The translations under genes and the position numbers were made by a program. Source: an uncultured Collinsella sp. (GTDB lineage Bacteria; Actinomycetota; Coriobacteriia; Coriobacteriales; Coriobacteriaceae). From it: a DNA stretch of 55,039 bases. The notes below the pieces were generated by a model. That model did no database searches. It saw only the letters and a program-made list of their open reading frames with translations, and was not told where the DNA came from. The stretch is taken from contig URNM01000001.1 of NCBI GenBank assembly GCA_900549185.1, positions 1-55,039 on the forward strand. Reading direction: 5' to 3'. Positions 1 through 23,087 of this stretch are shown here, in pieces; position 1 is the stretch's first letter; every line of letters begins with the position of its first letter.

Positions 1-594
1 CTGATGAAGGGTGATGAGGGAATCCGTTGTTTCGAGTTGCTTCGCTATCGCCCTTTGTTCCGGGATTTTTGGGCACCAAATAGGCATCTCGAAAAACGTT
101 GCATCGGAGATTGAAAACCTGTCAGACCTCGCCCCCGAATTGCCTTCGAGGAACATGAAATCATGCCACCTGGACGTTTTGAAATAGTGCTCTAAGTAGG
201 TTTTGTCCACGCTCTCATCTACCGAAAAAACTGTATACAGCGGGGACATGACACCCGCTCTGTTCAGGCGGTTTCTATTGATCGGACCGCAAGGCGCCGT
301 TACAGAAATCCTTGGGTTGTAGACGAAGTTGTCTGGTTGAACTACATAGTAACCACTGATATTCGCGTCGTTGGTAATGTCATGGTCGAAGTAGTCGAGC
401 TGGCTGATGACGCCTTGCTCTGCAGAATTTGTAAACGTCTCCGAAAGACCGCTGTCAGCGTTCTTGGTGGTTATCTTCTTGCTGAATTCACCAAGCTTAC
501 GCTGTTCCCAAGTTGAAACGAGGGGGCGCATGGTCGCATGCGTCCCCTCAGATAGACAAACTTTCGATTTCGCCTGTTCAAAAAAGCCGCTCAT
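1..594 (-). CDS. hsdS: Type I restriction-modification specificity subunit, partial (runs off window start)
   Basis: ATG at 594 overlaps the hsdR stop (ATGA). Hand translation MSGFFEQAK...STWEQRKLGEFSKK...FVYNPRIS...PEQRAIAKQLETTDSLITLHQ carries the HsdS conserved WEQRKLG and EQxxI...LITLHQ segments. Not in the ORF track. Confidence 0.9.
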   Translation of the reverse strand, partial: MSGFFEQAKSKVCLSEGTHATMRPLVSTWEQRKLGEFSKKITTKNADSGLSETFTNSAEQGVISQLDYFDHDITNDANISGYYVVQPDNFVYNPRISVTAPCGPINRNRLNRAGVMSPLYTVFSVDESVDKTYLEHYFKTSRWHDFMFLEGNSGARSDRFSISDATFFEMPIWCPKIPEQRAIAKQLETTDSLITLHQ

Positions 595-3500
595 TCGTCG
601 ATGTCGAAGCCGCCTTCCAGGATGAACTTCTTCAACAGTGCCGCCGCACGGGTGTTCACCTTGAACAGGGGAAGCGTCCTGCCTTCCTTCTGCTCAAAGA
701 AGGCCTTGGCGCGCGCCTTGTCCACCGAGTCCTTCAAATCGTCGAAGCGTCCGAACTCGTTAATGCTCGATTCCGTCAGGTCAAGCGCAGCCATGGTGGC
801 AAGAAGCCCGCCGTCTATGCCGAGCGCCTCGACGATTCGCTCGACTTGAGCGTTTTTCGCCTTGCGGGCATAGGACGTGATGTAATCCCTCAACGTCTTG
901 CCGTCTTCCAGGGCGACGTCCCCTCGCTCGACATCGTGAAGGAACAGCTCGGCGAAGCGCTGGTCATCCTGGTTTAGGGACGCGAACGATCGGTGGAGCT
1001 CCTCGCGCGCGGCGGCAAGACCCTCGTCATCCTGCTCAAGGCATTTCAGCCACTTCTCGAAGTTCGCGTTCATGTAGTCGCTGTCTATGAGCCCCGTGTC
1101 GATCTCGGTTATATGACCATCGAGCTCGTAGGGCGCTTCGGGCGCGTCGCCAGGCCCGCCCCCTCCTGCGAACAACTCCTTGTAGCGCTGCACGAGAATG
1201 AGATAGGTCCGCTCGTCGATGACCGGTTGCACGAAGAAGGACTTGCCCCTCGGCTCGCCTTCCTCCGGCTCCTCCTCAAACTCGTAGGTGTCCTGCTCCC
1301 ATGTGAAGCCCTGCACCTTCGCGGCCTCAAGGAACTCGTTGAGCTCAACGAACTCCTTGGCGAACTTGCGCCTGGCTTCCTGCGATGCGGGGAGCCTGGA
1401 GAGGTCTCCTACGCCAGCTGCTTCGAAGACCATGAGTATTTCCTGGAGGCGCGTATCCATCAACGCGATATTCTCCGGTAGCTTCTGGACGAACATATCG
1501 AGCGGGCGGTCTCCCGAATACAGCTTCACCGCCGCTTCGATATAGCCCTTCATAGTATGGGGTCGACGGTAATAGCGAATCGTGCCGAAAGGCTTGTCGG
1601 GCCCAAACAGGCGGTTCGTGCGGCTGAACGCCTGGATGATGCCCTCGTAGTGGATTACCTTGTCGAGGTAGAGAGTGTTAAGCCATTTGGAGTCGAAGCC
1701 CGTGAGCATCTGATCAACCACGATGAGCAGGTCGATGCGGGAATCCCGGTTGGTGTCGACGTTGGCGTAGGGTTTCTTGTGGGACAGACGAGCCGAGATA
1801 TCCTTCTTCATGGCGGGCCATGTGGGGATAGTGAACTCCTGGCCGTATGCCTTGTTATAGTCTTCTATGAGCTCGACCAAAGCGTCTTCCTTTACCGTGG
1901 AGCCGGCGTTGTTGTCGATGCTCGGGTCGAAAAGGGCAGTCACCTTCATCTGCGGGGCGCGCTCCTTGAAGGCTCGGTAGTAGTCGATTGCCTCTGGGAT
2001 GGAGTTTGTCGCCAAGATTGCATGGAACTTGTTGCCGTGGGAGAGCACCGGAAAGCGGCGCAGGATGTCCTCGACAACCTTTCCGTGATGCGGGGTGTCG
2101 GGCCAGTATTGGGCAGGAGTGAGGAAATCCTCGATTCCCTTGATATGGTTACCGGCACCGTCGACCATCGGCCCCATGGGAACCTTTGCCGAGTCCTTAT
2201 AGTAGTAGAAAACTTTGCTCTTTCGGTCGTCGGAAATGGCTTCGGCGACGGTTGCGGCTTTCGCCTGCTCCAGGGCAACCGCTTCGCGCACGTCATAGTC
2301 ATCGAACGTCGTCACCATGTAGGGGTCGAAGCCCAGCACATTGCCGTCGCGGATGCCGTCGGCGATGCTGTATCGGTGCAAGCATTCGCCGAACACCATG
2401 GCCGTGGTCGATCCCTTCTTCTGATTCTCGTCGAGGATTGGCGTTCCCGTGAAACCGAAGAAGAGGGCATTGGGGAAGGCACGACGTATGTCCTGGAGCA
2501 TGTCGCCGAAGGTGGATCGGTGGCATTCGTCAATGATAAATACGATACGTTTGCCAGCCAGGCGGTCGAGCTCAGCTTGGGTGATCCCCGTCTCGCCGGC
2601 CTTCAAGTTGCTCATCTTTTGGATAGAGGTGACGATAAGGCGATTCTTGGGGTCGTCACTAGCGAGCTTGGACTTGAGGACCTGCGTATTCTCAGTGCCC
2701 TGCACGTCGTCGGCGTCATCAGCGAAGGAGCGGTACTCCGAGAGCGACTGCGTGCCTAACTCGATACGATCCATGAGGAATACGACCTTGTCGGCATCAT
2801 GGGAGTCGGCGACAAGTTGGGCCGATTTAAAGCTAGTCATGGTTTTACCGGAGCCGGTGGTATGCCAGATATAGCCGCCGGGACGACCGGGCGTGCTGCT
2901 GTGCCGCGGCTCGTCCCATTTGCATCTGCGAACCTTGTCCGAGATGGCCGCGGCGGCATAGTACTGGTAGCTGCGCATGACTTTTAGGCAGCCATCCGAG
3001 CTGTCGGCCACGGTATAGAACCCAATGAGCTGATGTGCCATGGGAATGGAGAGCAGCGAAGAGGTGAAGCGCTTCCACTCGTCAGTACCGGGCTTGTCGC
3101 CCGCGCAGACGGGTTCGTTGTTGAAGTCTTCCCAGTGGAAGAAGAAGTTGGGGTTGAACGCGCCCGCTCCGGGGTTGGCGAAGTACCGCGCCTCGTCAGG
3201 GGTCATTCCTACGAAGATCTGCACCAGGCGGAAGAGTCCCGTGAACACACCTTCGTGCGCGTATTTTTCAATCTGGCCGGTTGCCTGGCTTACGGGCACG
3301 CCGCTGCGCTTAAGCTCGATATGGATGACGGGCATGCCGTTGATGAGCAGGCATAGATCACCGCGACGATCGTTAAGGATTTTGCTTTTTGCGGGATAGA
3401 TTGGCTGTTGGGCGATTTGGTAACGGCTTTGACCTGCAGCAATCTCTTGACGGTCGTAGATTTTCAGGCTGACTTCCTTGCCCAGGTGAAGGACGTCATC

Positions 3501-3791
3501 AGGGTTGTCGCGGGTGATGGCAATGGTTTTGCCGTTGATGAACCCGTTGAGCGCCAGCGGGGTCTTAAGCGTTTCGATTTGTTCGATGACCTGTGCCATC
3601 TCACCCTGCGTGAGTGGGCAGCCATTCAGGCGGTCTATGCCGGCATTGTTGTTAAACAGGATCTTCGCCCAGTTGCAGATAAGGTCCTGTTCGGTAGGGT
3701 AGCGAAGAACACCTTCTGCATCGTCCCAACCGTGCTGCTTCAACACAGCGATAACCGCTTCTTCGAACGAAGCTTCTTTATCGAAAACCAT
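591..3791 (-). CDS. hsdR: Type I restriction endonuclease subunit R
   Basis: 1066 aa; nuclease motif GDLCLLINGMPVIHIELK, Walker A HTTGSGKT, DECHRS, FTGTP, QAFSRTNR. Confidence 0.95.
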   Translation of the reverse strand: MVFDKEASFEEAVIAVLKQHGWDDAEGVLRYPTEQDLICNWAKILFNNNAGIDRLNGCPLTQGEMAQVIEQIETLKTPLALNGFINGKTIAITRDNPDDVLHLGKEVSLKIYDRQEIAAGQSRYQIAQQPIYPAKSKILNDRRGDLCLLINGMPVIHIELKRSGVPVSQATGQIEKYAHEGVFTGLFRLVQIFVGMTPDEARYFANPGAGAFNPNFFFHWEDFNNEPVCAGDKPGTDEWKRFTSSLLSIPMAHQLIGFYTVADSSDGCLKVMRSYQYYAAAAISDKVRRCKWDEPRHSSTPGRPGGYIWHTTGSGKTMTSFKSAQLVADSHDADKVVFLMDRIELGTQSLSEYRSFADDADDVQGTENTQVLKSKLASDDPKNRLIVTSIQKMSNLKAGETGITQAELDRLAGKRIVFIIDECHRSTFGDMLQDIRRAFPNALFFGFTGTPILDENQKKGSTTAMVFGECLHRYSIADGIRDGNVLGFDPYMVTTFDDYDVREAVALEQAKAATVAEAISDDRKSKVFYYYKDSAKVPMGPMVDGAGNHIKGIEDFLTPAQYWPDTPHHGKVVEDILRRFPVLSHGNKFHAILATNSIPEAIDYYRAFKERAPQMKVTALFDPSIDNNAGSTVKEDALVELIEDYNKAYGQEFTIPTWPAMKKDISARLSHKKPYANVDTNRDSRIDLLIVVDQMLTGFDSKWLNTLYLDKVIHYEGIIQAFSRTNRLFGPDKPFGTIRYYRRPHTMKGYIEAAVKLYSGDRPLDMFVQKLPENIALMDTRLQEILMVFEAAGVGDLSRLPASQEARRKFAKEFVELNEFLEAAKVQGFTWEQDTYEFEEEPEEGEPRGKSFFVQPVIDERTYLILVQRYKELFAGGGGPGDAPEAPYELDGHITEIDTGLIDSDYMNANFEKWLKCLEQDDEGLAAAREELHRSFASLNQDDQRFAELFLHDVERGDVALEDGKTLRDYITSYARKAKNAQVERIVEALGIDGGLLATMAALDLTESSINEFGRFDDLKDSVDKARAKAFFEQKEGRTLPLFKVNTRAAALLKKFILEGGFDIDE

Positions 3792-6152: not shown

Positions 6153-6416
6153 TGGGACGCATGATCCATTTGAGGCCTCTACCGGAAAGCGAATCCCATT
6201 CTGAGCGGGGATTCTGGGACGTAGTTTCCGCATGCAGCCTCGTTGGGAAAGTTCATCCCGGTTTGGAGCCATAATCTGGAACACTGCTTCCGCCAGAGGT
6301 CCCAATCGGAAACGGCATCCCACTCTGGGGCCGAAATCTGGGACGCAGTTTCCGGTTGAGGGCTGTTCCGGAAAATGTATCCCATTCCGAGCGGCAATTC
6401 CAGGACGCAGTTTTCG
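6153..6416. repeat. Array A: 9 copies of a 16-bp motif (YGGGAYRCANTTTCCG) in alternating orientation, 14- and 16-nt spacers, 62-bp period
   Basis: Example: tgggacgcagtttccg-gttgagggctgttc-cggaaaatgtatccca-ttccgagcggcaattc. Confidence 0.9.
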
Positions 6417-6712
6417 CAGATACAAGATGACGATCCGCAGCCCTTATCGCATGCCTTCAAATATGCGATCCAGAACCACAAAACAGCAGATAGAATGCTC
6501 TTTTTCAAAAAAGTACACGTCCCGAAACTTACCAAGGCTTCATAACTAGCTACCGTTCAAGGGCGCCGATTACCGCCCACCGATTCAAACAAGAAATACG
6601 TCGCCAAAAGCAGGCCATCTACCTGCATGGTTAGATTTTGGTCAGCTTTTGGTCAGTTGAGCGGCAAGTTCCGGCTGATACGTTTTTGCTACCAAAAAGG
6701 AGGCGGTAGCTC

Positions 6713-7711
6713 ATGACCCATCGCAATGACCAACTCATCGATCAGCTGCTAACCCAAGCCGAACAAGAGGGGCGCTGTCTGATTCCCCCGAGCGCGGCGA
6801 TCCGAAAAGCGCTCCTTCGGCGCACCGGCAGCACGGTCGTCTCGCCCATGCAGGGACTGTTCGCGCGCAAAATGCGCTGGAATGAACTCGACCGGGCGCA
6901 GCGTCATTGCGAGATTATTCGCGCCCTTGCGATCATCCACCCCGATTGGACGTTCTGCTCGTTTTCGGCAGCTTGCCTGCTGGGGCTCGAGGTCTCGTGG
7001 CGGCATCTGAACGTTGTACATGTCTGCAGCTCGACAAAGCCGTCGGCTCGTCCGGGCACGCATATTCAGCGGCACCAGGTCGAGCCGGCCGGAGCAACAA
7101 ATCAAGCTGGCATATCGATAACGCCGCCCATCCAAACGGTCACAGATTGCCTGCTGCAAACTGGTTTTGCCGATGGTATGCCCATTGCCGATTCGGCGAT
7201 CTCAAAGCTTGGTCTAACGCGAGAGCGGCTGATGGGAGCAGTCGAAAAACGAGCGGGCGCTCGCAACGGTCGCGCGGTGCGCACTGCGCTCACCACGCTC
7301 CAATATGCTGACGCGCGTGCCGAGAGCGGTGGGGAATCGGTCGCTCGAGCCGTCATGATCGAAACGGGCTTTGCACCCGACCAGCTCCAATATAAGCTGA
7401 CGGACCCCTTCGATTCGACCGAGACCATGCGAACGGACTTTGCCTGGGAGCGCCAGGCGCGGGAGCTCACATTGGGAGAACTCGACGGGTTCGTCAAGTA
7501 TACCGACCAGGCCATGCTAGCCGGGCGCACCACCGCCGAGGCACTCGTTGCCGAACGACAGCGCGAGGCGCATCTATCGCTCTACGGTCACCCTCTGCTG
7601 CGCTTTACCATGAACGAGGTCCGCTCGGCAGGAATGCTCGCCAAAAAGCTGCAGACGGCAGGCATCCGGCAGACCGCGCTGCCGACATGGCTCAACGAGG
7701 TTGACCTGTAG
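6713..7711 (+). CDS. AbiEi-like N-terminal region plus DUF559/Vsr-like PD-(D/E)xK nuclease-fold protein
   Basis: WTFCSFSAACLLGL, ITPPIQTVTDC, ADARAESGGES, RTDFAW...GELDGFVKY...ERQREAHL...LLRFT; AAGGAGG RBS. Confidence 0.75.
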   Translation: MTHRNDQLIDQLLTQAEQEGRCLIPPSAAIRKALLRRTGSTVVSPMQGLFARKMRWNELDRAQRHCEIIRALAIIHPDWTFCSFSAACLLGLEVSWRHLNVVHVCSSTKPSARPGTHIQRHQVEPAGATNQAGISITPPIQTVTDCLLQTGFADGMPIADSAISKLGLTRERLMGAVEKRAGARNGRAVRTALTTLQYADARAESGGESVARAVMIETGFAPDQLQYKLTDPFDSTETMRTDFAWERQARELTLGELDGFVKYTDQAMLAGRTTAEALVAERQREAHLSLYGHPLLRFTMNEVRSAGMLAKKLQTAGIRQTALPTWLNEVDL

Positions 7712-7754
7712 GGACTGCTGAGCCACGCATTGCCGGATCGCATCCCCCCCTATC

Positions 7755-8264
7755 TGGGCCGCGTTTTCCCAACGGCCACGCCAACGGAAAGCGCGTCCCA
7801 GCCTGGACGCTCAAAACGGGATGCACTTTCCGGATGGCGGGCCTAGCGGAAAGCGTGTCCCGGAATCCCGCCTCAGAACGGGACAGACTTTCCGGATGAA
7901 GCACTCAACGGAAACGGCATCCCGGAATAGACGCTCAAACTGGGATACATTTTCCGCTGAGGTTCCATCCGGAAACCGTGTCCCACTCCGAGCGTCAATT
8001 CTGGGATGGACTTTCCGCCAGAGGGTTCAGCCGGAAACGGCATCCCACTCTGAAGCGAAATTCTGGGACGCAGTTTCCGGTTGAGGGCTGTTCCGGAAAG
8101 TGTGTCCCATTCCAGACGCGGATTCCGGGATGCACTTTCCGTTTGAAGCTCCAACCGGAAAGCACATCCCACTCTGGAGCCGAATTCCGGGATGCACTTT
8201 CCGCTAGAGGCTCAAAAGGAAAGCGCATCCCACTCTGAGCGCCAATTCCGGGATGCAGTTTCCG
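7755..8264. repeat. Array B: 17 copies of the same 16-bp motif in alternating orientation, 13-14 and 16 nt spacers, 61-62 bp period
   Basis: Example: cgggatgcactttccg-tttgaagctccaac-cggaaagcacatccca-ctctggagccgaattc. Confidence 0.95.
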
Positions 8265-8272
8265 CTCCAAAC

Positions 8273-8304
8273 AAAAGGCCCCAGCTCGCGATGGAGCTGG
8301 GGTC
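8273..8304 (-). terminator. Intrinsic terminator of the xdh operon
   Basis: aaaa-ggccccagctc...gagctggggtc hairpin. Confidence 0.65.
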
Positions 8305-22869: not shown

Positions 22870-23087
22870 GTCTCGATCCGTAACAGTTAGAACCCTTTTT
22901 CCGGTCTATCTGTTACAGATCGAGACATTCGAATCCCCCTTAAGGGAAAATCTCAATCTGTAACAACAACTCGGCAAAATCACCCCAAGATGTTACAGAT
23001 TGAGACAAAGGGACGGCGCGGTTCGGAAGTATCTCAATCTGTAACATCTAACCCACTTTTAACGGTCTAGTTGTTACAGACTTAGAC
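22870..23087. repeat. Array C: 6 copies of a 16-bp motif RTCTCRATCTGTAACA in alternating orientation, 23-25 nt spacers, 80-81 bp period
   Basis: Copies start at 22870, 22911, 22950, 22991, 23031, 23072. Confidence 0.9.

Follow-up and report, generated by a model that had tools for sequence, protein, structure and literature searches.

What role does a gene for a 332-residue nuclease-like protein play between two regular arrays of alternating inverted motifs, and do gene and arrays belong together? The question is raised by the window, a stretch of 55,039 nucleotides from an uncultured Collinsella sp. whose genome is here called G000. The gene (6713..7711, + strand), re-found as an open reading frame and supported by its predicted fold and conservation, follows a ribosome-binding site, AAGGAGG, assigned by sequence reading (6697..6703, + strand). 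Array A (6153..6416) lies upstream, ending 296 nt before the gene start, and array B (7755..8264) downstream; neither is assigned a strand. The interval between array A and the gene holds a direct-repeat box with an 11-nt period and the core TTTGGTCAG (6628..6656, + strand), a putative competence/recombination regulon site; no sigma-70 site was found. The locus is flanked by a SIMPL gene, which is divergent, and by an xdh-type gene, which is convergent and ends in a terminator-like hairpin (8279..8302, - strand) that forms the fixed right border of the locus. The xdh-side neighbour is retained in the orthologue loci that have enough flank. On the best explanation of the locus, the gene would encode a REP-associated nuclease that is inherited vertically and has no relation to RAYTs, and arrays A and B would both belong to its cognate palindrome family.

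The array architecture described in the original prediction was reproduced. At up to three mismatches, array A contains 9 and array B 17 motifs with strictly alternating strands; the motif steps of 32 and 29-30 nt leave spacers of 16 and 13-14 nt, respectively, and give a period of 61-62 nt. The repeat family, designated R1, is BIME/REPIN-like, and its motif contains two almost invariant blocks, GGG and TTTCC, separated by six variable bases. At no more than two mismatches the motif matches the window 23 times, always within arrays A and B (100 shuffles: mean 1.02, maximum 4 matches). The spacers are indeed constant in length, but their variation in sequence, also noted earlier, is that of degenerate copies of one consensus: the long-spacer consensus reaches 14.3 and 17.9 bits versus 2.6 and 1.7 in controls, with 44 distinct long spacers across the genome. 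A CRISPR/TIGR-like guide array was rejected on the alternating inverted motifs and this spacer consensus (14-18 bits versus about 2 in controls). Neighbouring motif pairs are also predicted to form hairpins, all five pairs that were folded as DNA giving them with z-scores of -3.3 to -7.4. The 38-nt identity between the arrays (6337-6374 and 8062-8099) is exact and cannot be extended; an A/B identity of at least 31 nt occurs in just 3 of 74 orthologue loci. The window also holds a gene-free array of another family, R3 (22871..23045, no strand assigned; 5 motifs, 80-81 nt period), the same family that brackets a paralogue of the nuclease gene on contig C52.

Pairing within the arrays was analysed through the variable core bases, which pair between neighbouring arms about half the time without a consistent excess. 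For the long-loop type, pairing is at the chance level; for the short-loop type it is above chance in the window's genome (2.75 versus 2.38) and below chance in the orthologue loci (2.42 versus 2.62). As these results are at odds, core pairing does not settle whether a duplex or a hairpin is recognised. Taken with the spacer consensus, they speak against guide RNAs and also against an RNA stem under conservation.

The protein, which had no Pfam match and for which NCBIfam and PDB sequence searches gave nothing useful, was modelled with AlphaFold2 (pLDDT 94.4). Two parts are predicted: (i) residues 4-200, a winged helix followed by an AbiEi-like second domain, aligned with AbiEi 6y8q (Z 10.6, rmsd 7.1, 177 aligned); and (ii) residues 203-319 approximately, a Vsr/EDxHD/DUF559-like nuclease domain, aligned with the I-Bth0305I domain 3r3p (Z 9.9, rmsd 2.8, 94 aligned), Vsr 1cw0 (Z 8.8, rmsd 2.9, 105 aligned) and 3hrl (Z 8.7, rmsd 2.8, 88 aligned). 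Foldseek ranked Rv2827c (1zel, E 9.7e-4) and AbiEi at the top, PADLOC returned a weak AbiEi match, and the distant homologues passing the cut-offs included three of nine with DUF559 and four with AbiEi_4. The nuclease fold proposed from the conserved motifs is thereby borne out in the model, together with the AbiEi fold. Eight residues are invariant in 132 diverse homologues (E208, S209, R212, D242, E256, G259, K262 and R284), D258 is nearly so, and E208, D242, E256, D258 and K262 are kept in 78 of 78 orthologues; the conserved residues of the Vsr-type domain are candidates for a catalytic role. Alignment mapping places K262 at the position of a histidine in distant homologues. Vsr and EDxHD enzymes use a histidine at the active site (PMC3239194, available part), which in the window protein appears to be replaced by lysine. 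Judging from a dN/dS of 0.13-0.14 (78 in-register orthologues of 80), the nuclease gene is under purifying selection.

Genome-wide, R1 gives 96 hits arranged in 13 clusters and 13 singletons, versus 19 hits and no cluster in the shuffled genome, and 11 of the 13 clusters have no nuclease gene nearby. The same genome encodes three paralogues of the window protein (identity 38, 38 and 25%), making four paralogous nuclease genes, and a more distant fifth Vsr-like gene. Each paralogue is flanked by a different palindrome, the R5 family brackets the fifth gene, and every family is also dispersed. The families R1 to R5 form 13, 4, 16, 24 and 6 clusters (those of R5 being pairs), none of the four families tested forms a cluster in the shuffled genome, and 0 of 57 clusters lie inside ORFs of at least 200 aa. 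The upstream R2 flank ends at a contig end in G000 and is present in orthologues. Two Y1_Tnp genes occur elsewhere than at the window locus; the RAYT-type one has its own, sixth repeat family, and a role for the genome's RAYT in serving R1 was therefore ruled out. Each of these dispersed families brackets exactly one nuclease gene of this type, and a partnership of gene and repeat is very likely. Scatter of the motif across the genome had been named in advance as evidence against such a partnership; the scatter is real, but it does not refute the pairing, as REP systems show the same pattern. The view of gene and arrays as one self-contained unit has to be given up, given the 11 further gene-free arrays and six genomes in which the gene was not found but 32-59 motif hits are kept.

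Beyond this genome, homologues were identified in 36 of 151 genomes of the phylum (a tally that includes one match in the unpublished genome G148, used for no other result), in all 22 genomes of the own family, and with 11-13 matches in each of four genomes of genus g76; the protein family comprises 3,819 representatives at 50% identity. A repeat shared between the upstream and downstream flanks, with a score higher than that of 99% of 2,162 cross pairs, was found at 30 of 47 distant loci and at 5 of 300 ordinary ORFs. These 47 loci include the window locus and are what is left of 50 after removal of three, because the ORF was mis-assigned in two of them and the flank was short in the third. 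Among Coriobacteriia the proportion is 30 of 37, so that 17 distant and 7 Coriobacteriia homologues have no shared flanking repeat, and many homologues are flanked by single palindromes instead of arrays. The repeat changes with the protein clade: it is common to 32 of 32 ordered Coriobacteriia pairs at 70% protein identity or more, to 1 of 12 pairs at 50-70% and to less than 1% of pairs below 40%. Since kin are not independent, all these counts serve as descriptions and not as probabilities. Repeat-bracketed homologues and a repeat that follows the clade agree with the earlier suggestion of a non-HUH analogue of RAYT/REPIN/BIME systems. Matching records are nearly absent from plasmids (1 of 72,556) and phages (1 of 50,697).

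REPtrons, which consist of RAYT/TnpA-REP genes with REP, REPIN and BIME repeats (PMC5581495, PMC8266576, available parts), are the closest known systems. As in these, a chromosomal, vertically inherited, low-copy gene is bracketed by cognate palindromes that also occur in many other intergenic places, the divergence of the enzyme goes along with that of its repeat, the arrays alternate in the manner of BIMEs, an IS is inserted between arrays, and, as described for RAYTs in the available part of PMC5581495, the gene is nearly absent from plasmids and phages. The enzyme differs, being an AbiEi and Vsr-like PD-(D/E)XK protein in place of a Y1 HUH tyrosine transposase, and its gene carries the competence-gene box, which is lacking from the Y1 genes of the same genome. 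The locus works like a REPtron, yet it is not one, as the HUH domain is absent. The type IV antitoxins AbiEi and Rv2827c share the fold of residues 4-200 and an association with inverted repeats (PMC7319586, available part). Unlike these, the window protein has an extra nuclease domain, and its repeats are not confined to one promoter but flank the gene on either side and recur genome-wide. The AbiE type IV toxin-antitoxin system was ruled out: as the original prediction had stated, there is no AbiEii partner, the neighbours being the SIMPL and xdh-type genes with no adjacent DUF1814 nucleotidyltransferase toxin in an operon.

I-Bth0305I, Vsr and DUF559 proteins share the fold of residues 203-319, the conserved acidic residues and the fusion of a DNA-binding domain to a Vsr-like domain (PMC3239194, PMC3424549, available parts). 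In contrast to I-Bth0305I and Vsr, the window gene has no intron, intein or methyltransferase partner, and has a lysine at the histidine position. A homing endonuclease was rejected for a free-standing gene with repeats on both sides and a gene-less allele that holds one short array; classical double-strand-break homing does not fit either, because the gene-bearing allele keeps its target repeats and 11 further sites carry them too. Stem-loop families of actinobacterial genomes (PMC2267715) are likewise dispersed palindromes of high-GC bacteria to which no enzyme is assigned. In the available part of that source no partner gene is named.

The behaviour of the arrays was followed in relatives, where a scan of genome contigs returned close Collinsella orthologues only (89-94% identity). 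Over 74 orthologue loci, array A has 2-12 and array B 7-21 motifs, and arrays are present on both sides in 66 of the 70 loci with enough flank. Of 18 genomes of the same genus, 16 have 19-65 R1 hits and 2 have none; the 12 genomes examined from other families never exceed 3 hits. Six genomes without a detected clade-1 gene (82-99% complete) retain 32-59 R1 hits, a number that matches gene-bearing genomes, and a short-term dependence of the repeats on the gene is therefore not seen. Gene-less sites in relatives, which the original prediction had proposed to look for as empty sites, do exist but are not bare: each of the four that were read (two with a contig end nearby) has a single array of 3-6 motifs at the position of the nuclease gene, as expected of recombination between arrays A and B. 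With 20 R1 and 20 R4 loci fetched and only the mappable ones counted, 8 of 10 R1 and 8 of 11 R4 dispersed loci are common to relatives, which indicates that new insertions are rare; the shared sites vary by whole units. Arrays thus gain or lose whole units and can be present or absent at orthologous sites. At one gene-free site compared in 21 genomes, R1 forms an array of 5-6 motifs in 8, has 2 motifs in 1 and is missing in 12, and at another dispersed site R4 is present in 1 of 21 genomes; these differences are unpolarised, so gain and loss are not distinguished. Direct repeats to the left and right of 13 R1, 16 R3 and 24 R4 clusters are not longer than in shuffled sequence, giving no sign of target-site duplication.

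The box upstream of the gene, which did not figure in the original prediction, is shared with competence and recombination genes. It was first noticed at 6628-6656 by comparing the leaders of the paralogues. A first matrix, built from 13 seed sites, picked out 15 loci of at least 21 bits (shuffle maximum 13.9); three of these, at comEA-comEC, prmC and the R5 gene, had not been among the seed sites. The box precedes recA, yraN-comM-dprA, rpsF-ssb and the Flp-pilus gene cpaB, and also an rmuC-containing gene run, a pilin-like adhesin gene and an HTH-WYL gene. A second matrix was retrained on six non-nuclease sites only, which were originally found with the nuclease-containing seed, so that its test is not fully independent; with it the window-gene site scores 32.7 bits, the genome's best after the six training sites, and the genes on C175, C186 and C92 score 20-22. 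A score of at least 12 is reached by 77 of 79 orthologues and by 14 of 1,767 ordinary ORFs. All 8 clade-3 loci have the box at a distance of one gene upstream, and both Y1 (RAYT-like) genes are without it. With the G000 matrix, a score of 12 is not reached by many of the other paralogues in Coriobacteriia.

Other lineages have other motifs at comparable positions. In G142, of another genus, a different motif, chosen by eye from the sites, has nine exact sites, at recA, comEA, three of five paralogues, cpaB, prmC and two positions without an assigned gene. Of the four exact sites unseen beforehand, two precede cpaB and prmC, as in G000; at one mismatch the motif is not enriched (79 versus 88 in the control). 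In high-GC genomes, 15 of 22 homologues have a DnaA-box-like motif no more than 120 nt upstream, versus 2 of 120 other ORFs, and in windows of 300-500 nt the motif stands before 8 of 9 comEA, yraN and recA genes; over all 39 non-Coriobacteriia loci it was found at 17. The two paralogues of G114 showed no upstream motif in common. Transformation of Micrococcus luteus requires Flp pili and cpaB (PMC8467076, available part), and the HTH_17 regulator that adjoins cpaB there was not found here. On the evidence of these upstream signals, the nuclease gene is probably co-regulated with the competence and recombination genes, although the presence of the box before the HTH-WYL gene, prmC and the pilin-like adhesin gene means that the regulon may be a DNA-damage one.

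The explanation we favour, with a confidence that stops slightly short of even, is a domesticated repeat-associated nickase, expressed with the competence and recombination genes, whose substrate would be its own repeats when these are single-stranded or part of a heteroduplex. Since AbiEi binds inverted repeats (PMC7319586, available part), the AbiEi module is proposed to bind R1, where it would read the invariant blocks GGG and TTTCC, about one helical turn apart. The gene would be switched on together with comEA-comEC, dprA, comM, recA and ssb. The enzyme would be unlikely to cut plain duplex and would more probably nick a repeat that is single-stranded, extruded as a cruciform or forms a loop in a heteroduplex of donor and recipient DNA; nicking of such transient forms only is proposed because 13 target arrays lie in the cell's own chromosome. 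Vsr is a heteroduplex nickase, and nicking of this kind is in keeping with that. Repair or strand invasion from the nick could then alter the unit number, and the nick could also let repeat-bearing and gene-bearing alleles be copied, by which the family would be maintained.

A broader version of this explanation is conceivable but doubtful: throughout the phylum, AbiEi-Vsr nucleases would nick incoming or heteroduplex DNA at private palindromes, repeat-bearing alleles would win, and the repeats would be selfish passengers of transformation. If this were true, such a non-transposase "conversion drive" would account for the orphan families of palindromic repeats in Actinomycetota, and the shared boxes would expose an unknown actinobacterial competence regulon. 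In that reading the nucleases are wired into each lineage's own competence regulon.

Among the rival explanations, an unlikely one makes the partnership serve the host. The repeats would be marks of self-DNA, comparable to uptake sequences or Chi, a competence-induced protein would bind or nick them to start, bound or favour conspecific recombination, and their spread would be a by-product. The fixed chromosomal position, purifying selection and near absence from plasmids and phages agree with this, as do the presence of the gene in 22 of 22 genomes of the family, the box common to the gene and the uptake genes, and the restriction of the repeats to a single species complex (they occur in 16 of the 18 genomes of the genus and give no more than 3 hits in any of the 12 genomes of other families). 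Uptake sequences, however, number in the thousands, and some 60 clusters per genome are sparse for such a mark. Loss of individual paralogues is frequent, selfish diversification better explains why a genome has four or five systems in parallel (11-13 in g76), and a host mark has no need to bracket the gene with its own repeat.

It is likewise improbable, to a similar degree, that the protein mobilises the repeats in the manner of a RAYT, cutting and joining single-stranded hairpins when DNA is replicated or damaged; the box would then mark a damage or ssDNA regulon (WYL- or DnaA-dependent) and not competence. Against this, PD-(D/E)XK hydrolases are not known to have covalent strand-transfer chemistry. 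The box does stand before recA, rpsF-ssb, the rmuC gene run and the HTH-WYL gene, but it stands likewise before the uptake genes comEA-comEC, comM-dprA and cpaB. The high-GC motif is similar to a DnaA box; against the damage regulon, neither RecA-NDp nor SOS box patterns were found in any of the 32 upstream regions read. Folding of the repeats as DNA hairpins with central mismatches, like the REPs of E. coli (PMC8266576, available part), would also suit a mobiliser.

A catalytically quiet AbiEi-like regulator or nucleoid protein, with the arrays serving as operators or as terminator-side repeats whose variation comes from slippage and ordinary recombination, has little probability. It draws on the binding of AbiEi and Rv2827c to inverted repeats in their own promoters (PMC7319586, available part), on the lysine in place of the Vsr histidine, on the persistence of arrays in gene-less genomes, and on the sufficiency of recombination alone for changes in unit number. 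It conflicts with acidic site residues that are invariant in the 132 diverse homologues and the 78 orthologues, with arrays that occupy both sides of the gene, array A stopping 296 nt before the start, with the lack of a toxin beside the gene, and with paralogues that each have a dispersed family of their own. Finally, the array-derived RNA system once entertained for this locus, in which array transcripts would be cut into guide or structural RNAs used by the protein, has constant spacer lengths and hairpin potential in its favour but is very improbable, since the spacers share a consensus, the variable core has no consistent arm covariation, strand symmetry is strict, 11 arrays are gene-free, many homologues have single palindromes, and Rfam returned only sub-threshold miRNA matches, none at the gathering level.

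The preferred reading, a nickase expressed with competence genes, bears on how short repeats spread. The spread of REP-type repeats is poorly understood, and HUH RAYTs are the only enzyme class tied to REPs in the available parts of the literature surveyed; the present family, with 3,819 representatives at 50% identity, is a second, unrelated one with REPtron architecture. No description of the gene/repeat pairing or of the box was found in the literature searched, as far as available; supplements of PMC2267715 and PMC3733652 might contain the repeat families described here, and a word search of the available part of PMC3733652 gave no mention of these taxa. Nor was an earlier description of the competence link found there. 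What is new here is a competence/recombination-gene box in the leader of a repeat-bracketed nuclease gene, and the system would become categorically new if transformation-coupled nicking holds. Because the nuclease genes share an upstream signal with DNA-uptake genes, an undescribed route by which short repeats spread during DNA uptake is suggested. The shared box ties repeat dynamics to natural transformation and is a candidate for the cis-element through which Actinomycetota control competence; the available part of PMC12849477 states that their competence regulator is unidentified. Many toxin-less proteins labelled "AbiEi antitoxin" thereby receive a testable function, for which up to five natural enzyme/repeat pairs per genome, and 11-13 genes in one genus, offer built-in specificity controls.

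Two further points concern variation of the arrays. Contigs from three sequencing runs carry unit-number variants only. In G000 no cross-family cluster pairs lie within 300 nt of each other among the 68 clusters; across strains, one site collects three repeat families.

A more distant gene with its own palindrome was identified in the same Collinsella genome as the window (G000). This gene of 377 aa (contig C92, 3687-4817; locus L216) carries a weak MTES_1575 (Vsr-like) domain, and its product bears only a distant likeness to the window protein, the 332-aa AbiEi and Vsr-like product (hhalign probability 8.6%). A long palindrome of its own lies on both sides of the gene and occurs as 6 pairs across the genome. 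Upstream of it stands the box, the direct-repeat site with an 11-nt period that also precedes the window gene and competence and recombination genes.

Two further genes were found behind the box in G000. The first, located immediately 3' of it, encodes an HTH-WYL-like protein of 261 aa (C40, 1-250; L340-L344) and is a candidate for either the regulator of the putative regulon or one of its members. The second is a short ORF (C87, 1226-1519; L208) without a Pfam match, which reads like a lone fragment of a Vsr-type domain. In another genome, G152 (sites L253-L257), one motif is common to comEA and two paralogues, and the same motif also lies upstream of genes for a DUF222 protein, an HTH protein and an M23 peptidase.

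The intergenic site orthologous to C22 8843-8889 of G000 (L286-L306) is a repeat hotspot. Its contents differ by strain: RAYT-type repeats, arrays of R1 (the palindrome family of the window gene) nested within RAYT-type repeats, or a unit of R2, the family of a paralogue. Additional palindrome families were noted at L187 and L309-L323, one of them a variant of R4, another paralogue's family. Elements of about 150 nt, with both termini resembling tRNA gene ends and adjoining tRNA-type repeats (L167, L183, L196), are present in relatives and missing at the corresponding site of G000.

Two Y1_Tnp genes are encoded in G000. The one on C86 (L332) has its own repeat on both sides and is a RAYT-type locus in Coriobacteriia; no flanking repeat of this kind was seen at the one on C2 (L333). 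A Mutator-family transposase gene is flanked by two R1 arrays (C34, 6807-8727; L221), as if it had been inserted into a single array; the region spans 6.7 kb in G000 versus 439 nt in one relative.

Among relatives, the left flank of the window locus is variable, while the side of the convergent xdh-type gene is fixed. Upstream of the locus lie an exonuclease-family gene and a gene that, as read from its sequence, may be labelled type I restriction R-subunit-like (window 591-3791).
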